From NCBI GenBank assembly GCA_964594075.1, contig CAZQKW010000009.1, forward strand, positions 11,912-75,911: 64,000 bases of DNA, read 5' to 3'. Source of the stretch: an uncultured Thermodesulfobacteriota bacterium. GTDB lineage: Bacteria; Desulfobacterota; WTBG01; CAIYCZ01. The position numbers and the translations under genes are program-made. Of the stretch, positions 24,014-32,124 are shown in pieces. Below the pieces are notes generated by a model, which was not told the DNA's origin, ran no database searches, and saw only the letters and a program-made list of their open reading frames with translations. Numbering within the stretch: the first letter of the stretch is position 1; each line of letters begins with the position of its first letter.

Positions 24014-26032
24014 ATGAATCAAAAACAAGCCCCTATGGAACAGCTCTGTATCAATACTATTCGCACTCTTGCAATGGATGCTGTGCAAAAAGCACATTCA
24101 GGCCACCCTGGCACTGCTATGGCATTAGCACCACTGGCCTATGTATTGTGGATGAAATTTCTCCATTTCAATCCGCGCAATCCGTCCTGGTTCAACCGGG
24201 ACCGGTTTGTGCTCTCATGCGGCCATGCTTCAATACTTAACTATATTATGCTCTTTTTAACAGGCTATGACTTGAGCATTGATGATATTAAAAATTTCCG
24301 CCAATGGGGCAGTAAAACTCCCGGCCATCCGGAATTCGGGGTTACTCCCGGGATAGAAACCACAACGGGGCCGTTAGGGCAGGGCTTAATGAATGCCGTA
24401 GGCATGGCAATGGCAGAAGCACGTCTTGCCGCAATTTTCAACCGTCCTGGATATGAGGTTGTTGACCACTTTACCTATGGATTTTGCAGCGACGGGGACT
24501 TGATGGAAGGCGCTTCCCATGAGGCTGCATCAATTGCCGGCCATTTCGGTTTAGGCAAGCTGATTTTTATCTATGATGATAACCGCATAACCATTGAAGG
24601 AGAGACAGCGCTTACCTATTCTGATGACGTATGCAAGCGGTTTGAAAGTTATCACTGGCACGTGCAGAATATCGGCGATCGGGCAAATGATTTGGCGGCG
24701 CTTTCGGCTGCGCTGATCGAGGCACAAAAAGAACAGAACCGTCCATCGCTTATTATTGTGCGCTCGCACATCGGCTACGGGTCGCCAAACTTCCAGGACA
24801 CCAAGGAGGCACACGGCCAGCCACTGGGTGAAGAAGAGGTAAAACTAACCAAAAAGCATTATGGTTGGCCTGAAGAGGCTTATTTTTATATACCGGAAGG
24901 CGTTCTCCAGCACATGTCTCAACCAGGACAGCGCGGTGCACAGCTTGAAGCTGCATGGCGCGAAACCCTGACTCGCTACCGCCAGGCATATCCCGAGCTT
25001 GCTGAGCAGTTTGAAGCCACGTTGCGTGGCGACCTTCCGGATGGATGGGATCATGAAATGCCGGTGTTTACCCCGGACAGCAAATCAATAGCCACCCGCA
25101 GCGCCTCAGGAAAAGTCCTTAATGCCATAGCAAAAAAAGTTCCTTGGCTTATGGGCGGGAGCGCAGACCTTGGCCCTTCAACGAATACAATTATTTCTAA
25201 CCACGGATATTTTGCCAGAGATAATTATGCCAGCCCAAACATTGCCTGGGGTATTCGGGAGCACGCCATGTGCAGTTGCTCTTCCGGCATGGCGCTGCAT
25301 GGAGGTGTGCGTCCTTACGCAGCCACTTTCTTTGTTTTCACTGACTATGCCCGGCCGGCAATCAGGCTTGCTGCCATGATGCATTTGCCGGTTATTTATG
25401 TAATGACCCATGACTCAATTGGGCTGGGAGAGGATGGCCCCACCCATCAGCCGGTTGAACATCTCGCTTCATTTCGCGCCATGCCCGGCATCTGTGTTAT
25501 CCGGCCGGCTGATGCCAATGAAGTTATCTTTGCCTGGCGTGCAGCAATGGAGCGCACCGGCGGCCCGACTATGCTCGTCCTCAGCAGGCAGAATCTCCCC
25601 ATCCTTGACCGATCAAAACTCTCCGGGGCAGAAGGAGTGCTTAAAGGAGCATACATTTTATCCAAGGAGAATGCGGGGCAACCGGATATTATACTTATCG
25701 CTTCCGGGTCGGAAGTGCATCTGGTACTGCAAGCACAGGAGCAGCTTTTGCTCGATAGGATTAATGCCCGTGTGGTCAGCATGGCAAGCTGGGAGCTATT
25801 TAGAGAACAGCCGCAGAACTACCGCGATGAAGTGCTTCCTCCGAAAATAAAGGCACGGCTTGCAGTAGAAGCAGGATCACCGCTTGGCTGGCGCGACTGG
25901 GTTGGTGATACCGGCGACATCATTGGCATAACACGATTTGGCGCCAGCGCTCCGGCAAAGGAGCTGTTCAGCAAGTATGGCTTCACCGTGGAGCATATTG
26001 TGGCGCGGGCGAAGCAAATTGTTACCAAATGA
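24014..26032 (+). CDS. tkt: transketolase (start at ATG 24014, AGGAG RBS)
   Basis: TPP-binding motifs (GHPE/GHPG..., GDGDLMEG), 673 aa. Confidence 0.9.
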
Positions 26033-26388
26033 AGAGGGGCTGAGGGTATTGTTTAGTGATCCTCTTTGGTTAAAAGGTTTTTTTAAAAGAGATTTTTTCA
26101 GCGCCCCAAAGGATGTCCGTTATTGATTCCTCTCATGCTGCTTAAAAAAGTAAACCTGCGCTATACCTCTCTTTAAACCTTTAGCAAAGCGATTCAAGCC
26201 ACATTAGAGGAAATAGGCTGCCGATTCATAACATAAATTTCAAATATTTTATCTGAGAGTGCATTATAGTTACAAAAACCGATGTCAGCAGCTGCTCGAA
26301 ATAACGGAACTATATTTAACTTATTGAAATTGCTTTATTTATTTTCAAATAAGGCTTAACCTATTGAAATTTAATTATAATTTTTTAT

Positions 26389-26417
26389 TTGACATGCACC
26401 ATAAACTTTCCTATACT
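26389..26417 (+). promoter_or_regulatory. near-consensus sigma70-type promoter TTGACA-N17-TATACT
   Basis: TTGACA 26389..26394, 17-nt spacer, TATACT 26412..26417; ~295 nt upstream of the NlpC/P60 gene. Confidence 0.45.
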
Positions 26418-26600
26418 CCGTCCAGACCGAAGCCGGGGGGCAGCAGTCTACCATTTTTAGTTTTCATGTAGAACACCTTCTCACATTGACCAAACGTCTG
26501 TATATAGTGGCACTTCTGCTACTGAGACCCAGGTTGAGCTAAACAAAAACTAAATGCAACAGCCGTGCACAATGGTTGCTACATCTCTCAGCCATTGAGC

Positions 26601-26642
26601 TTGTGCAAAAATATCCAGAATATGGATACATTTTTGCATAAA
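26601..26642. promoter_or_regulatory. ~17-bp imperfect palindrome TTGTGCAAAAATATCCA-gaa-TATGGATACATTTTTGCATAA; candidate operator just upstream of NlpC/P60 gene
   Basis: Inverted repeat seen directly; cognate regulator unknown. Confidence 0.3.
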
Positions 26643-26712
26643 AATGAAGGATTCAGGCTGTTTAACTGACTGTGGAGAGGCTATGTTTCCATCAGATAAC
26701 AGAAAAAACGAG

Positions 26713-27972
26713 ATGTTTGTTGGTCGCTCAATACATCGCACTATTCATATCATTCTTGTCATAATCATTACGTTCTGCACTCATAGTGTTTACGGAAAAA
26801 CAAGGGTCGCTTCTTCCCGGAAGAAATCGGGCATCCCGGTCTCTATTCAGCACCAGCGATTGCTCCAAAACGAGATGAAGAAATACCTTGGAACGCCCTA
26901 CGAACTGGGCGGTACCGGCTTAGATGGCATTGACTGCTCTGGCTTTGCACGGCGAATTTATAAAGATGTGTATGGCGTCAATCTCCCCCATAATGCGGCG
27001 TCACAGTCAAAATGTCCGCCCTCGGTGCTGAAAAAAGTGCCGTTAGAAAACCTGAATCCGGGCGATCTTATTTTTTTCTCATCTTCCCCTCGAAACAAAC
27101 AGCGGATAACACATGTAGGCCTTTATCTTTCAGATGGCGAATTTATCCATGCTTCCCGTGGAAAAAAAAGTGTCGTTATTTCAAGCCTGAATGAGGGTCA
27201 TTGGCGTTCAAAGATAGTTTCAACCAAAAGGCTATCACGTCTTGATCCGTGGGATGAATGGCAGGCAGAACGTTCAAGCAACATATCTCTGGCAGCTAAT
27301 AAGAAAAATAGGCTTAGACTTTCATATAAGAAAACCGCCAAACCCTCGCCGACTACTGAACCCAGTAAATACGCCGCTATTTATTACCGTGATCAGTTTC
27401 ACGATTTAGACCTTCAATACACCAGAACATTATGGGATAACACCTGGAATGTCACTATGAGCATGTTTCAGCAGCAGGCGCTCATAGGTGATGGCAGGAT
27501 GTTCTCAAACCCTTATCCGGTGCCAACGGGACAACTGGTATGTGACGGGCACTTTACGTCTGCGTACAACCGAGGCTTTAGAATGAGTAGTGACTTTAGA
27601 CCGGTTAACTGGCTTAACATAATGCCTTCAATAACGTATTTTAATCATGGTCCGGCAATACAGAACAGGGAACTCCCCCGCCGCGTCATGGGCGTTGATA
27701 TAGACCTTATTTCTCAAGACAGTACGTGGTCATTGTCCACGGGAGTCCAGTATGCGGATCTCAAGCAGCCCAGCATTTCTGTGGTGAATTACCGTAAAAA
27801 TGATATTAATGAACTCGATATGTCATTAAGATATCGCCAGCAGGTAAACGATCGCCTGAATATAACGGTAATTGGGCAGCGTATTCAACAATCAAGCTCA
27901 GGTATTGAACAGTATCTGGATAATGAACGGACAGATCAAAGCATTTCTTTCCGCCTGAATTTTGTCTACTAA
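26713..27972 (+). CDS. NlpC/P60 (C40) peptidase fused to C-terminal putative outer-membrane beta-barrel (autotransporter-like); start at internal ATG with signal peptide
   Basis: Signal peptide IHIILVIIITFCTHSVYG; NlpC/P60 catalytic Cys (GIDCSGFARRIY) and His (ITHVGLY); C-terminal ~250 aa with alternating hydrophobic pattern ending ...RLNFVY (aromatic C-terminus typical of OMP barrels). Confidence 0.55.
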   Translation: MFVGRSIHRTIHIILVIIITFCTHSVYGKTRVASSRKKSGIPVSIQHQRLLQNEMKKYLGTPYELGGTGLDGIDCSGFARRIYKDVYGVNLPHNAASQSKCPPSVLKKVPLENLNPGDLIFFSSSPRNKQRITHVGLYLSDGEFIHASRGKKSVVISSLNEGHWRSKIVSTKRLSRLDPWDEWQAERSSNISLAANKKNRLRLSYKKTAKPSPTTEPSKYAAIYYRDQFHDLDLQYTRTLWDNTWNVTMSMFQQQALIGDGRMFSNPYPVPTGQLVCDGHFTSAYNRGFRMSSDFRPVNWLNIMPSITYFNHGPAIQNRELPRRVMGVDIDLISQDSTWSLSTGVQYADLKQPSISVVNYRKNDINELDMSLRYRQQVNDRLNITVIGQRIQQSSSGIEQYLDNERTDQSISFRLNFVY

Positions 27973-28145
27973 TAACCTCATTTCACGATTGCATGTGACA
28001 AAGCAATACCACGGAGATGGGCCGCATGCGTGCCAGCCGCCGTGGTTTTGCTGAAATGCTGAACTATCAGGCGTTCCGCACATTACCCGTGAAAATAAGC
28101 CTGCCTGATAAAGACAACCCCCCCTTTGACGCTGCTTACACGGAA

Positions 28146-28161
28146 ACACTATTTCTTGTGA
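28146..28161. promoter_or_regulatory. possible NrdR box ACACTATTTCTTGTGA upstream of nrdJ
   Basis: 13/16 match by eye to the NrdR-box consensus acaCwAtATaTwGtgt; no clear second box at the expected helical spacing. Confidence 0.2.
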
Positions 28162-28367
28162 GACTTGTGTCGCAAAAATCCCTTGTGAAAAAGTAATAAT
28201 TGCAATAATAAATATTGCTATATCCATTAATTGTCGGTTGTGCTGGTTTACCTCGACTTTTCTTCCGTGAGGTGCACATAGTCTATTGAGGTTTGGAGCG
28301 TGCGGGTGCAAGGATTCAGGTATTATGGTGAACATTATACAGCATTAATCTCACCCAAGGGGTAATC

Positions 28368-30485
28368 ATGCAGGTTCTTCCGCAAACGATACGTAAGCGT
28401 GACGAGTCTCTGGTGAGCTTTGATAACCAGAAAATATGGCGCGCCATCTATAGGGCTGCTTTTGAAGTTCTGGCAGATGAATCAAAAGCCAGAGAGTTAG
28501 CAGATGGCACACTTGGCAAGGTATTGGAAAAAATTTCACTTCGTTATGCCAATCTCGTTCCTTCCGTTGAAAATATCCAGGATACGGTAGAAGAAACACT
28601 GATGGAGGAAGGCAACAGCGTTATTGCCCGAAGTTATATTCTCTATCGGGAGGAACATAAATACCTCAGACAGGCAAAAAAAATCTTTGGTATTAAAGAT
28701 GACCTTAAACTCCCCTTAAACTCTCTTTTTGTGCTAAAAAATCGTTATTTGCTGAAAAATGATGATCAGCAGGTAATAGAAACCCCCCGCGAACTCTTTC
28801 AACGAGTCGCAAAAGCTATAAGCCAAGGCGAGCTGAATTACAAATCGCCGTATCAGAGGGAGGAAGTTGAAGCAACCTTTCTGCAGATGATGACCAGCCT
28901 AAAATTTATGCCAAATTCACCCACCCTCATGAATGCGGGAACAGAGCTCGGGCAACTTTCTGCCTGTTTCGTGCTGCCTGTTGAAGATTCCATTGAAGGT
29001 ATTTTTGAGACTCTGAAAAACATGGCCCGCATTCATCAGACCGGCGGTGGAACCGGGTTCGATTTTTCGCGTCTCAGACCGCGGGGCGATATTGTTAGTA
29101 CCACAAAGGGGGAAGCATCAGGGCCGGTTTCATTTATGAGCATTTTTAACCAGGCTACGGGAATAATCGTTCAAGGGGGACGGCGACGCGGCGCCAATAT
29201 GGGCATACTGCGCTGTGACCACCCCGATATTGTTGACTTTATTCAGGCCAAGCAGCAAGAAGGGGCATACTCAAACTTTAATCTTTCGGTGGCCGTTACT
29301 GACGCTTTTATGGATGCTGTCCGCAAAAATGGCTCATATGACCTCATCAATCCCCGGAACGGGAAAAAAGTCAAATCCATCCGCGCTAAGTCCACATTTG
29401 ATCTTATCGTGCACGCTGCATGGCGTTCGGGTGACCCGGGACTGGTATTCCTTGATGAAATCAACCGCCATAATCCCACGCCAGTAATGGGGAAAATAGA
29501 AGCCACTAACCCGTGCGGAGAAATCCCGTTACTTCCTTATGAAAGCTGTAACCTTGCATCAGTCAATCTGGCAAAATTCGTAAATGGAAGAACTATTGAC
29601 TGGGAAGGACTAAAAGAGTGCATCTGGTGGGGAGTTCGTTTTCTTGACGATGTTATTGAAGTCAACAAATATCCCCTGTCCCAAATCAAAGAAATTACAT
29701 TTGCAAACCGCAAAATAGGGCTGGGGGTCATGGGATTTGCCGATATGCTAATAAAATTAGGCATTCCCTATACTGATCCTCAGGCACTCACTACGGCAAA
29801 GACGCTTATGCAATTTTTTCAGCAGGAAACGCGCAATGCTTCAATGCGCCTTGCCCGTGAACGAGGGGCCTTCCCGGCTTATGAGAAATCCATATATCCG
29901 GCGATGAACCTGAAACTGCGCAATGCAACGGTCAACACTGTAGCGCCGACGGGAACTATCAGCATTATCTGCGGCTGCTCCAGCGGTATAGAGCCGTTAT
30001 TCGCGTTGAGCTATGTGCGGAACGTCCTGGCGGGAGCAAAACTGTTTGAAGTCCATCAGCTCTTTGCACAGGAACTTCGCCAGCGGGGTCTTTACCATAA
30101 AGATCTTATGGCAGAAATAGGAAAATCAGGTTCGATCCAGCAGCTCAATGAAATACCCGAAGAGCTGAGAAAATTGTTTGTCATTGCTTTTGATATATCG
30201 CCTGACCAACACCTTGAAATTCAGGCAGCGTTTCAGCAGTTCACGGATAATTCGGTTTCCAAAACCATAAACCTTCCCCCTGATGCGAGCATTGAGGATG
30301 TGGCACATATTTATCTGCGCGCCCATGAATTGAAATGCAAGGGTATAACGATTTACCGTTACGGCACGAAAGAAAATCAGGTGCTTTCTTTTGGCGCGGA
30401 GGAGTGGGAAGAAGAAGCAGAAGAGCTTATTACTGCAGATGCTGAATATTCCGGGGGATGTTTTTCCGGAACCTGTGTTTTTTAG
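28368..30485 (+). CDS. nrdJ: class II (adenosylcobalamin-dependent) ribonucleotide reductase with N-terminal ATP-cone
   Basis: ATP-cone (VSFDNQKIWRAIYRA), NPCGEIPLLPYESCNL active-site region, C-terminal Cys pair CFSGTCVF. Confidence 0.85.
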   Translation: MQVLPQTIRKRDESLVSFDNQKIWRAIYRAAFEVLADESKARELADGTLGKVLEKISLRYANLVPSVENIQDTVEETLMEEGNSVIARSYILYREEHKYLRQAKKIFGIKDDLKLPLNSLFVLKNRYLLKNDDQQVIETPRELFQRVAKAISQGELNYKSPYQREEVEATFLQMMTSLKFMPNSPTLMNAGTELGQLSACFVLPVEDSIEGIFETLKNMARIHQTGGGTGFDFSRLRPRGDIVSTTKGEASGPVSFMSIFNQATGIIVQGGRRRGANMGILRCDHPDIVDFIQAKQQEGAYSNFNLSVAVTDAFMDAVRKNGSYDLINPRNGKKVKSIRAKSTFDLIVHAAWRSGDPGLVFLDEINRHNPTPVMGKIEATNPCGEIPLLPYESCNLASVNLAKFVNGRTIDWEGLKECIWWGVRFLDDVIEVNKYPLSQIKEITFANRKIGLGVMGFADMLIKLGIPYTDPQALTTAKTLMQFFQQETRNASMRLARERGAFPAYEKSIYPAMNLKLRNATVNTVAPTGTISIICGCSSGIEPLFALSYVRNVLAGAKLFEVHQLFAQELRQRGLYHKDLMAEIGKSGSIQQLNEIPEELRKLFVIAFDISPDQHLEIQAAFQQFTDNSVSKTINLPPDASIEDVAHIYLRAHELKCKGITIYRYGTKENQVLSFGAEEWEEEAEELITADAEYSGGCFSGTCVF

Positions 30486-30539: not shown

Positions 30540-31187
30540 ATGCAAAGCGCACAGAAACGAATAGGTGCGATTATCAAAATTCTCCGACAAAACTATCCCG
30601 TTGCCTGCACAGCACTTAATTTTGAAACGCCGCTGCAGATTCTTGTCGCGACCATTCTTTCAGCCCAGTGCACTGACGAACGGGTTAATAAAATAACTCC
30701 GGCACTCTTTAAAAAATATTCTTCCGCAAAACATTTTGCGTGCGCTCGGCAGGAAGACCTGGAAAGAGAAATTCGGTCCACCGGATTCTTTAGAAATAAA
30801 GCAAAGAATATCATCGCAGCGGCAAAAAAAATTTGTAATGACTACGGCGGGCACGTGCCGGATTCCATGGAAAAACTTTTAACGCTACCGGGCGTTGCGC
30901 GTAAAACAGCCAACATTGTGTTATCCAGCGCCTTTAAAAAGGCGGAAGGTATTGCGGTAGATACGCATGTCAAGCGGTTATCTGAACGTCTGGCGTTGAG
31001 CACGCATGAAGATCCGGAAAAAATTGAAAAAGATCTCATGGCGTTGGTGCCCAAAAAGGACTGGCTGGATTTTAATTATCTGCTGGTCAATCATGGCCGG
31101 GCAATTTGCACGGCACGAAAGCCGAAATGCCTTGAATGCCCGATACAACATCTCTGCCCGTCGGCAAAAAAATTCTCCACTGGCTAA
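30540..31187 (+). CDS. nth: endonuclease III
   Basis: HhH-GPD (LPGVARKTANIVL), catalytic Lys/Asp, 4Fe-4S motif C-x6-C-x2-C-x5-C (CTARKPKCLECPIQHLC). Confidence 0.85.
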   Translation: MQSAQKRIGAIIKILRQNYPVACTALNFETPLQILVATILSAQCTDERVNKITPALFKKYSSAKHFACARQEDLEREIRSTGFFRNKAKNIIAAAKKICNDYGGHVPDSMEKLLTLPGVARKTANIVLSSAFKKAEGIAVDTHVKRLSERLALSTHEDPEKIEKDLMALVPKKDWLDFNYLLVNHGRAICTARKPKCLECPIQHLCPSAKKFSTG

Positions 31188-31203
31188 AAAGCCAAGATGC
31201 ACA

Positions 31204-32124
31204 ATGGCTAAAAAGTTAATGGGCATTTTTTATGGCTTTTACCCGTTAACCCCTATGCAGCGAGGAAATATGCTATTTACCAACTCAGTTATCAAAGAAG
31301 CCTGTGCAGATTTGCAGTCCCGCTATGTTGACTATCTTATCAATCATTTTGCAGATTGGCGCGTCTGGGCGGAGGCTTCCGCTAAAGTTGCGAACCGGGA
31401 ACCGGTGCGGGAGGAAGAAATTCCCGTGGCGTTTCGAACAGAATTCAAGATAACCAAAGTCATCGTGGAGATGGAAGACCTCGGGAAATTTGACTGGCAA
31501 AACCCCACGCTGCTAAAACTGTTTGGTGAACTTGCGCAAGGAGAATTTTATGCCTTTTTTGGCGATATGATAACCCAAATTGCCCTGCGTCTGTCACAGT
31601 CAACGGGGGTCAAAACCCTCTTTGAGATCGGGGCCGGCAGAGCAAATCTAACCAAGATTATGCTTGACCAGATGAGGGCGATGCAGGTAGCGCTGCCTAT
31701 CATAACCACAGATTCCCAGCCGATTATTTTAGATACTATTGAAAAGCTGAAATCAGAATACCCCGAGGCAGAAATTTATCCCGGCCTCTGGAATATTACC
31801 GACGATCCTTCCGATGAACTGTTCACCGTAATTCAGCATCCGGTTCTTCTGTATGAGCGCTACACGCTTAACTATGCAAACGTGAGTGCGATCAAAAATA
31901 TCTCACGAATTGCAGACATTGTGGTGCTGGGGGACTGGTTTAACTATACCGGCGAACTGTTTGCCTATGACGAGATATTTAAAAAAATTGGTGCGATGCC
32001 CCTGTTTTTTAAGGACATAAAACCCCATCTTGATAAATATTTTCCCAATCAGTATATTTTTGATCAGCGCGCCCTTGATTCAATCAAGCTTCCCAATATA
32101 ACCCTGCTTATAGCGTGGAAGTGA
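31204..32124 (+). CDS. putative class I SAM-dependent methyltransferase (start after nth stop; ORF-track upstream extension overlaps nth)
   Basis: Motif-I-like LFEIGAGRANLTKIM; otherwise uncharacterised. Confidence 0.4.
   Translation: MAKKLMGIFYGFYPLTPMQRGNMLFTNSVIKEACADLQSRYVDYLINHFADWRVWAEASAKVANREPVREEEIPVAFRTEFKITKVIVEMEDLGKFDWQNPTLLKLFGELAQGEFYAFFGDMITQIALRLSQSTGVKTLFEIGAGRANLTKIMLDQMRAMQVALPIITTDSQPIILDTIEKLKSEYPEAEIYPGLWNITDDPSDELFTVIQHPVLLYERYTLNYANVSAIKNISRIADIVVLGDWFNYTGELFAYDEIFKKIGAMPLFFKDIKPHLDKYFPNQYIFDQRALDSIKLPNITLLIAWK

Follow-up and report, generated by a model that had tools for sequence, protein, structure and literature searches.

Endopeptidases that open the sacculus need tight spatial control, which in model bacteria is provided by lipoprotein anchors and by adaptor-guided proteolysis, as for MepS with NlpI and Prc. 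Among described proteins, the closest relatives of the enzyme considered here are MepS (Spr) and NlpC of E. coli, both of them outer-membrane-anchored lipoproteins. Two other designs also bear on it: type Va autotransporters such as EstA and EspP, in which a functional N-terminal domain is followed by a C-terminal barrel, and OmpA, OmpM and intimin (the latter with LysM), in which an outer-membrane barrel and a periplasmic peptidoglycan-engaging domain share one chain. In this study, we analyzed a 64,000-nucleotide stretch of DNA (the window) from an uncultured Thermodesulfobacteriota bacterium (GenBank assembly GCA_964594075.1, contig CAZQKW010000009.1, positions 11,912 to 75,911 of the forward strand), in which the gene at positions 26713-27972 encodes an NlpC/P60 enzyme that is, with high probability, fused to an outer-membrane barrel. 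The architecture is real, conserved and uncharacterized, and its barrel is unclassified; the limited collection of literature searched held no description of an NlpC/P60-barrel or NlpC/P60-autotransporter fusion. We favor, with moderate confidence, the reading that the protein is a Sec-exported peptidoglycan endopeptidase facing the periplasm and anchored in the outer membrane by the barrel instead of by lipid.

Gene and domain organization

A single open reading frame (ORF) is listed for this part of the window, at 26644..27972 on the plus strand. The start at 26713 is its third in-frame ATG and gives a product of 419 amino acids, and close relatives are annotated either from the ATG at 26713 or from the ATG ten codons upstream. 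The product carries the motifs GIDCSGFARRI, with Cys75, and ITHVGLY, with His134. Its parts are as follows.

26713-27972, plus strand: gene for the NlpC/P60-barrel protein, in four parts (signal peptide, NlpC/P60 domain, polar linker, predicted C-terminal barrel)
26713..26796, plus strand: signal peptide, residues 1-28, with the cleavage site between MFVGRSIHRTIHIILVIIITFCTHSVYG and K inferred by the -3/-1 rule
26797..26889, plus strand: basic, Ser-rich spacer of low model confidence, residues 29-59, between signal peptide and catalytic domain
26890..27234, plus strand: NlpC/P60 (MEROPS C40) catalytic domain, residues 60-174, PF00877
26935-26937, 27112-27114 and 27148-27150, plus strand: codons of the catalytic residues Cys75, His134 and His146
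27235..27264, plus strand: polar acidic linker, residues 175-184, SRLDPWDEWQ, from the catalytic domain to the first barrel strand
27265..27969, plus strand: predicted outer-membrane beta-barrel domain at the C terminus, residues 185-419, family unclassified (AlphaFold2, Foldseek)
27934..27969, plus strand: beta-signal-like C-terminal strand (DQSISFRLNFVY) with an aromatic last residue, a conserved ending

Distribution of the fusion

A first search returned 47 full-length homologues with the same two-domain layout, at 24-96% identity. They include the "C40 family peptidase" of cultured Desulforapulum autotrophicum (P0043), as well as proteins of metagenome-assembled genomes (MAGs) labelled Desulfatirhabdiaceae, Pseudomonadota or "delta proteobacterium"; the named relatives belong to Desulfobacterota. 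In the databases, the relatives are labelled just "C40 family peptidase", "lipoprotein Spr" or "hypothetical". Since the same layout is kept down to about 25% identity, it is no assembly artefact.

A profile built from the barrel only gave just 115 matches against 1.84 billion representative proteins, with the barrel domain lying at the C terminus in every one of them. All full-length matches (86/86) carry NlpC/P60 (PF00877), while the short matches are partial gene calls whose starts fall within the linker or the catalytic domain and which lack a signal peptide of their own; on the latter ground, stand-alone barrels were rejected. It follows that the fusion is obligate, the barrel being found neither with another partner nor alone. 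Xanthomonas and Pseudomonas loci (L041 5749-7197; L056 5686-7134) were considered as fusions and likewise rejected, because each holds a pair of NlpC/P60 genes that lie side by side but are separate; some of these genes at least are of lipoprotein type, and the pairs explain the long match spans. The scan of genome contigs used catalytic-domain patterns and returned mostly ordinary NlpC/P60 genes.

Catalytic domain

Pfam model PF00877 covers residues 60-172 with an E value of 1.9e-26 and a score of 92.5 bits against a cut-off of 23. The top NCBIfam model is the MepS/Spr equivalog NF008096, which is matched in part only and at 78.3 bits against a cut-off of 186, and the protein is thus a relative of MepS by sequence and no MepS orthologue. 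Among PDB sequences, phmmer gave its best matches to Acd24020, an autolysin of C. difficile, and to Spr/MepS of E. coli (E values of 1e-19 to 1e-20), and in the alignment to MepS/Spr residues Cys75, His134 and His146 fall on the catalytic residues, in the canonical, non-permuted order. AlphaFold2 modelled the domain as a papain-like alpha+beta fold with a predicted local distance difference test score (pLDDT) of about 90, for which Foldseek gave TMt values of 0.83-0.90 and root mean square deviations of about 2 A to 7cfl and 7v6t/7v6u (TMt 0.88 and 2.0 A for 7cfl).

Among the full-length relatives, with identities down to about 25%, Cys75 is kept in 84 of 86 and both His134 and His146 in 86 of 86, a degree of conservation that argues for an active enzyme. 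NCBIfam also gave a weak match to RipD, an inactive peptidoglycan-binding NlpC/P60 protein, and there are weak superfamily matches to LRAT (E value of 0.063) and to the permuted papain-like enzymes YiiX/YaeF; these superfamily matches are surpassed by those to MepS, Acd24020, LytE and CwlO by 15-20 orders of magnitude.

N-terminal region

A hydrophobic h-region is present in 108 of the 117 relatives with a complete N terminus, whereas a lipobox-like motif of any kind was found in just 8 of them. The window protein itself lacks a canonical lipobox: Phe precedes Cys22, which is the sole cysteine of its signal peptide and is not conserved. Judged by sequence, the N terminus looks like a signal peptide of the signal peptidase I type and not like that of a lipoprotein. 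The original prediction, made from the letters of the window, had proposed a signal peptide followed by a C40 core with Cys and His motifs, and this proposal agrees with the h-region, the PF00877 score and the two motifs reported above.

AlphaFold2 modelled residues 3-25 as a helix and residues 45-56 as the first helix of the NlpC/P60 fold, with pLDDT below 50 for residues 23-43 in between. Among relatives, the spacer that precedes the catalytic domain has a length of 6-152 residues and, in many cases, a high Lys content. In P0101, P0114, P0134, P0156, P0159, P0180, P0186 and others, it takes the form of a Lys-rich, low-complexity stretch of up to about 150 residues; the window protein has this stretch in short form only (residues 29-45).

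Predicted C-terminal barrel domain

Two AlphaFold2 models were obtained, one of the full-length protein from a 46-sequence alignment (pLDDT 72.9) and one of the C-terminal domain alone from a more diverse 44-sequence alignment (pLDDT 79.5; predicted template modelling score, pTM, 0.73). In both, DSSP assigned an all-beta meander of 11 long strands, as listed below.

Predicted strands (AlphaFold2, DSSP), by residue: 185-193, 199-210, 227-240, 245-257, 283-298, 301-312, 322-333, 339-350, 365-377, 382-395, 406-417

In the model of the domain alone, the connections between these strands alternate between short and long (5, 16, 4, 25, 2, 9, 5, 14, 4 and 10 residues), and the long connections are also those that vary among relatives. 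The modelled alternation agrees with the periplasmic turns and surface loops of outer-membrane proteins. A dyad alternation of hydrophobic and polar residues runs through all 11 predicted strands and is kept across 86 relatives, so that the alternating pattern originally reported for about 250 C-terminal residues was recovered over roughly 245. The same holds for the terminal aromatic residue that had been pointed out: 123 of 125 relatives terminate in Tyr or Phe, as the window protein does with ISFRLNFVY, and the relatives carry F/L/W/V/Y/I at position -2 and L/F at position -4. On sequence, this aromatic ending matches the pattern of the beta-signal recognized by the beta-barrel assembly machinery (BAM), and these features taken together go far beyond what chance would give.

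When the domain was compared with the PDB by Foldseek, the 50 best matches were all outer-membrane barrels and no soluble fold was returned. They include OmpG, TonB-dependent receptors, LpxR, DcaP, FadL, OprB, KdgM, AlgE, FapF and EspP, with template modelling (TM) scores of 0.32-0.58 and an E value of 1e-3 at best, and the modelled fold is that of a generic outer-membrane barrel from which no specific family stands out. A soluble, non-barrel fold had been named beforehand as the outcome that would speak against a barrel, and neither the predicted meander nor the fold matches point to one. Curated families gave the same picture of an unclassified domain: for residues 176-419, no Pfam or NCBIfam family exceeded its threshold when 19, 44 and 86 family members were scanned, and the sub-threshold hidden Markov model matches were scattered and non-recurrent, most of them pointing to families of outer-membrane proteins (DUF5777, OMP_b-brl_3, MipA, the PgaA barrel, PorV, FomA, OmpL and SusC). 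No OmpA_C, SLH or LysM domain was matched by Pfam in the protein, and the barrel profile gave zero matches to all PDB chain sequences even at an E value of 10.

The kinship to autotransporters that had been suggested for this domain was likewise examined. PF03797 was unmatched in the full protein (E values up to 1), in 19 and 44 C-terminal domains (up to 10) and in 86 full-length relatives (0.01), and homology to that family, put forward as a check, thus found no support in any of the 19, 44 or 86 members. In both models, DSSP assigned no helix between residues 175 and 185, the position of an autotransporter pore linker, and the linker at 175-184 has a pLDDT below 50. Of the autotransporter-like architecture, the order of the parts therefore stands, while membership in the family is not supported, given the lack of PF03797 and of a predicted pore helix and the 11 predicted strands in place of 12.

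Strand number and orientation

In a BAM substrate, the last strand has its end in the periplasm. Counted back from this end through the short and long connections of the AlphaFold2 models, strand 2 is predicted to have a periplasmic start and strand 1 an extracellular one. Several observations weigh against a periplasmic enzyme held by the barrel: (i) both models have 11 strands, with strand 1 starting extracellularly, which would place the enzyme outside the cell unless the polar linker (residues 175-184; 10-14 residues) threads the barrel lumen; (ii) the linker is short and limits the reach of the enzyme towards the sacculus; (iii) across the window and four related loci, no conserved gene neighborhood supports a role in cell wall growth; and (iv) the limited collection of literature searched gave no experiment on any member of the family. 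The two models, moreover, draw on largely overlapping alignments and do not count as independent.

A conserved KR closes the catalytic domain. Among the 82 relatives with the first hairpin, its distance to the first hydrophobic residue of strand 1 amounts to 17-18 residues in 63 and to 15-19 in 73. The sequence of the linker is barely conserved, and the first surface loop varies between 20 and 37 residues among relatives. The near-constant length of the linker points to a fixed distance that it has to bridge.

By alignment, the region before strand 3 varies by subgroup. Group A, to which the window protein belongs, has a two-strand hairpin; group B appears to have one clear strand after an acidic, helix-like segment of about 20 residues; and group C has only 17-30 residues. 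A subgroup with a single strand before the conserved nine would have 10 strands, an even number that allows a simple periplasmic N terminus. Alignment thus gives strand counts of 11, 10 and 9 within one family, which are incompatible with an enzyme that always lies on the same side of the membrane, so that either the alignment reading or the models are incomplete. In addition, of two closely related members, P0031 equals P0030 minus about 48 residues, a clean deletion of exactly the first beta-hairpin and its loop; it would be either a natural size variant of the barrel, two strands smaller, or a MAG assembly artefact. Covariation between strands 1 and 11 was assessed by mutual information with average product correction in an alignment of 125 sequences (effective number of about 106), in which neighboring and non-neighboring strand pairs scored alike and shared ancestry dominates the scores.

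A 2026 preprint on barrel strand counts in the AlphaFold database (AlphaFold DB) reports that most odd numbers are artefacts and that putative 11-stranded barrels are apparently real and of a previously unknown fold (bioRxiv 10.64898/2026.03.07.710327). That study gives no sequences, families or members for the 11-stranded barrels and serves as a lead only. As far as the models go, it is unlikely, at perhaps the level of a serious outside chance, that the window protein forms a true 11-stranded barrel with strand 1 starting at the cell surface, either displaying its enzyme without a pore helix or tethering it in the periplasm by a linker threaded through the lumen. Were this the case, the protein would show outer-membrane proteins to be built and used in a manner not described before, and it would give the "unknown 11-stranded fold" of AlphaFold DB a tangible representative that can be studied. 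If the odd count holds, the even-strand rule for bacterial outer-membrane proteins would be broken, with consequences for how BAM closes a barrel.

Proposed function and alternative explanations

Our reading of a barrel-anchored periplasmic endopeptidase starts from what the analysis shows: the identities of the domains, the conserved triad, a fold predicted to be of barrel type, the terminal beta-signal, the missing lipobox and the obligatory fusion. The N-terminal signal peptide would direct the protein across the inner membrane and be cleaved by signal peptidase I with no lipidation, after which BAM would recognize the terminal aromatic beta-signal and insert the C-terminal domain into the outer membrane, where it would form a small barrel with 10-11 strands. 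The domain with Cys75, His134 and His146 would stay in the periplasm, where the short, fixed-length linker would keep it next to the inner surface of the outer membrane, and would cleave stem peptides or cross-links of peptidoglycan. The barrel would thus take the role that the N-terminal lipid anchor has in E. coli MepS and NlpC. In this scheme, we infer the dependence on BAM, the side of the membrane that the enzyme faces and the exact bond that it cleaves. We prefer a periplasmic anchor because of the peptidoglycan-acting relatives, the conserved triad, the 10-strand subgroup with its simple periplasmic N terminus and the narrow barrel.

The most serious alternative is surface display in the manner of an autotransporter, by which the enzyme would act outside the cell on foreign walls, free muropeptides or another gamma-glutamyl substrate. 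The order of signal peptide, enzyme and C-terminal barrel is that of type Va autotransporters, and the simplest geometry for 11 predicted strands with alternating loops puts the enzyme outside; the loss of exactly one hairpin between P0030 and P0031 keeps the count odd, the acidic segment before the single strand of the other subgroup resembles a pore helix in the alignment, and the putative 11-stranded barrels of AlphaFold DB are reported to look real (bioRxiv 10.64898/2026.03.07.710327). On the other hand, the barrel shows no sequence kinship and no specific fold kinship to those of autotransporters, no pore helix is predicted in the window protein, and the enzyme's closest relatives act on peptidoglycan, which is periplasmic in a diderm cell. 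The strand count rests on models, and the helix of the subgroup is an alignment reading and not a prediction. A barrel of 10-11 strands is also narrower than the 12-stranded ones that house the autotransporter helix, and too narrow for such a helix. Taking both sides together, we regard surface display as unlikely, although it deserves to be kept in view. The question of whether the barrel serves to anchor or to export the C40 enzyme, raised in the original prediction, is therefore answered in part: anchoring is favored as the more economical, since the substrate is periplasmic and the closest relatives, MepS and NlpC, are outer-membrane-anchored lipoproteins, while the odd strand number of the models would speak for export.

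The remaining alternatives concern what the two domains do. If the NlpC/P60 domain mainly binds peptidoglycan, the protein would staple the outer membrane to the sacculus in the manner of OmpA or OmpM, with the domain order reversed; a barrel joined to a periplasmic peptidoglycan-binding domain is a common tethering design, a short linker of fixed length suits a spacer, and the weak match to RipD points the same way, but the best matches are active endopeptidases and the residues of the Cys-His-His triad persist in 84-86 of 86 relatives, even where identity falls to about 25%, as expected of a working enzyme, which makes a pure tether improbable. It is still less probable that the papain-like domain is directed at the membrane, acting on a lipid or lipoprotein as LRAT-type acyltransferases and phospholipases do: the very short linker would hold the active site within a few nanometers of the membrane, and the LRAT and YiiX/YaeF superfamily matches exist, but these matches are marginal, trailing those to peptidoglycan endopeptidases by the 15-20 orders of magnitude given above, and the domain is not circularly permuted, unlike LRAT-type enzymes. 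A soluble, beta-rich C-terminal domain, such as a cell-wall-binding sandwich, would account for the lack of a curated family match and for the weak Foldseek statistics (E value of 1e-3 at best, TM scores of 0.4-0.58); the 50 best fold matches are nevertheless barrels of the outer membrane without exception, and proteins of the outer membrane are typified by the features seen here, namely an outward-facing hydrophobic dyad, a conserved aromatic residue at the end and long, variable loops alternating with tight turns, so that we consider this explanation very improbable indeed.

Genomic setting

In the window, the fusion gene has as neighbors the genes for a transketolase, an ATP-cone ribonucleotide reductase (28368-30485) and an endonuclease III (30540-31187), a setting that looks housekeeping-like. 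Horizontal transfer was considered and rejected, as the guanine-plus-cytosine (GC) content of the gene and its value at third codon positions (GC3) match those of the neighboring genes and there is no sign of recent transfer. The sole cell-wall-related neighborhood among the loci compared is that of the metagenomic relative P0023 (L084 4499-7949), whose fusion gene lies directly between a gene of the Beta-lactamase2 family and one for a monofunctional transglycosylase (PF00912).

The spacer upstream of the fusion gene, between it and the transketolase gene (26033-26712), is unusually long (680 bp) and AT-rich (GC 0.37). It contains the following site.

26389..26417, plus strand: promoter-like site TTGACA-17-TATACT, with 11/12 matches to a sigma-70-like consensus

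Promoter-like sites are no more numerous in this region than in shuffled sequences, and the site at 26389..26417 is a consensus match alone; it is a possible promoter, which would imply a 5' leader of about 230-300 nucleotides. Downstream, a spacer of 395 bp (27973-28367) precedes the ATP-cone ribonucleotide reductase gene and has no Rfam match, the cobalamin riboswitch included; indeed, no Rfam family was found anywhere in 25900-28500, which covers both spacers. Most of the downstream spacer is filled by an antisense ORF of 145 amino acids (27898-28335, minus strand) that reaches into the 3' end of the barrel gene; it is without a Pfam match and probably does not represent a gene. The minus strand of this spacer also carries one weak terminator-like hairpin, at 28026-28010. 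Further downstream, an ORF of 372 amino acids (31006-32124, plus strand) without a Pfam match shares with the endonuclease III gene the final 180 bp of the latter; the true start of the ORF probably lies further downstream.

Comparison with known systems

Type Va autotransporters, represented by EstA and EspP, share with the window protein the order of signal peptide, functional N-terminal domain and C-terminal barrel with an aromatic end. They have, however, a PF03797 domain, 12 strands and a helical pore linker, none of which was found in the window protein, for which 11 strands are predicted. EspP is a generic fold match at rank 36 with a TM score of 0.44, no better than OmpG, AlgE or DcaP. 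The would-be passenger of about 145 residues is also small, and its substrate is periplasmic. With the putative 11-stranded barrels of AlphaFold DB (bioRxiv 10.64898/2026.03.07.710327), the window protein has in common the strand count predicted in both AlphaFold2 models.

OmpA, OmpM and intimin likewise join, in one chain, a barrel of the outer membrane to a periplasmic domain that engages peptidoglycan, but their OmpA_C, SLH and LysM domains bind the wall without cutting it, whereas the domain of the window protein is, to judge from its conserved triad, a hydrolase. In concept, the MltA-interacting protein MipA is a further pairing of a barrel with a cell-wall hydrolase; itself an outer-membrane barrel, it scaffolds MltA through noncovalent binding, while here barrel and hydrolase are parts of one chain. 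Homology to the MipA/OmpV family (PF06629) is not supported, with a single sub-threshold match (E value of 0.03) among 44 C-terminal domains.

The closest comparison is that with MepS (Spr) and NlpC of E. coli, which have the same catalytic domain, Cys-His-His triad and 12-residue spacing between the two histidines and which provide the best sequence and fold matches. These enzymes and the window protein are exported and attached to the outer membrane, as predicted for the latter; MepS and NlpC owe their attachment to a lipid at the N terminus, specified by a lipobox, whereas the window protein has no lipobox and would be held by an integral C-terminal barrel of about 235 residues. Bacteria of the Desulfobacterota type would thus have found a different solution to the control of sacculus-opening enzymes, in which the endopeptidase is welded to an integral barrel and its amount and position depend on BAM-mediated assembly. 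Anchoring of this kind would couple the opening of the wall directly to outer-membrane growth, and the homologue of cultured Desulforapulum autotrophicum makes the family open to experiment alongside the lipid-anchored enzymes of E. coli.

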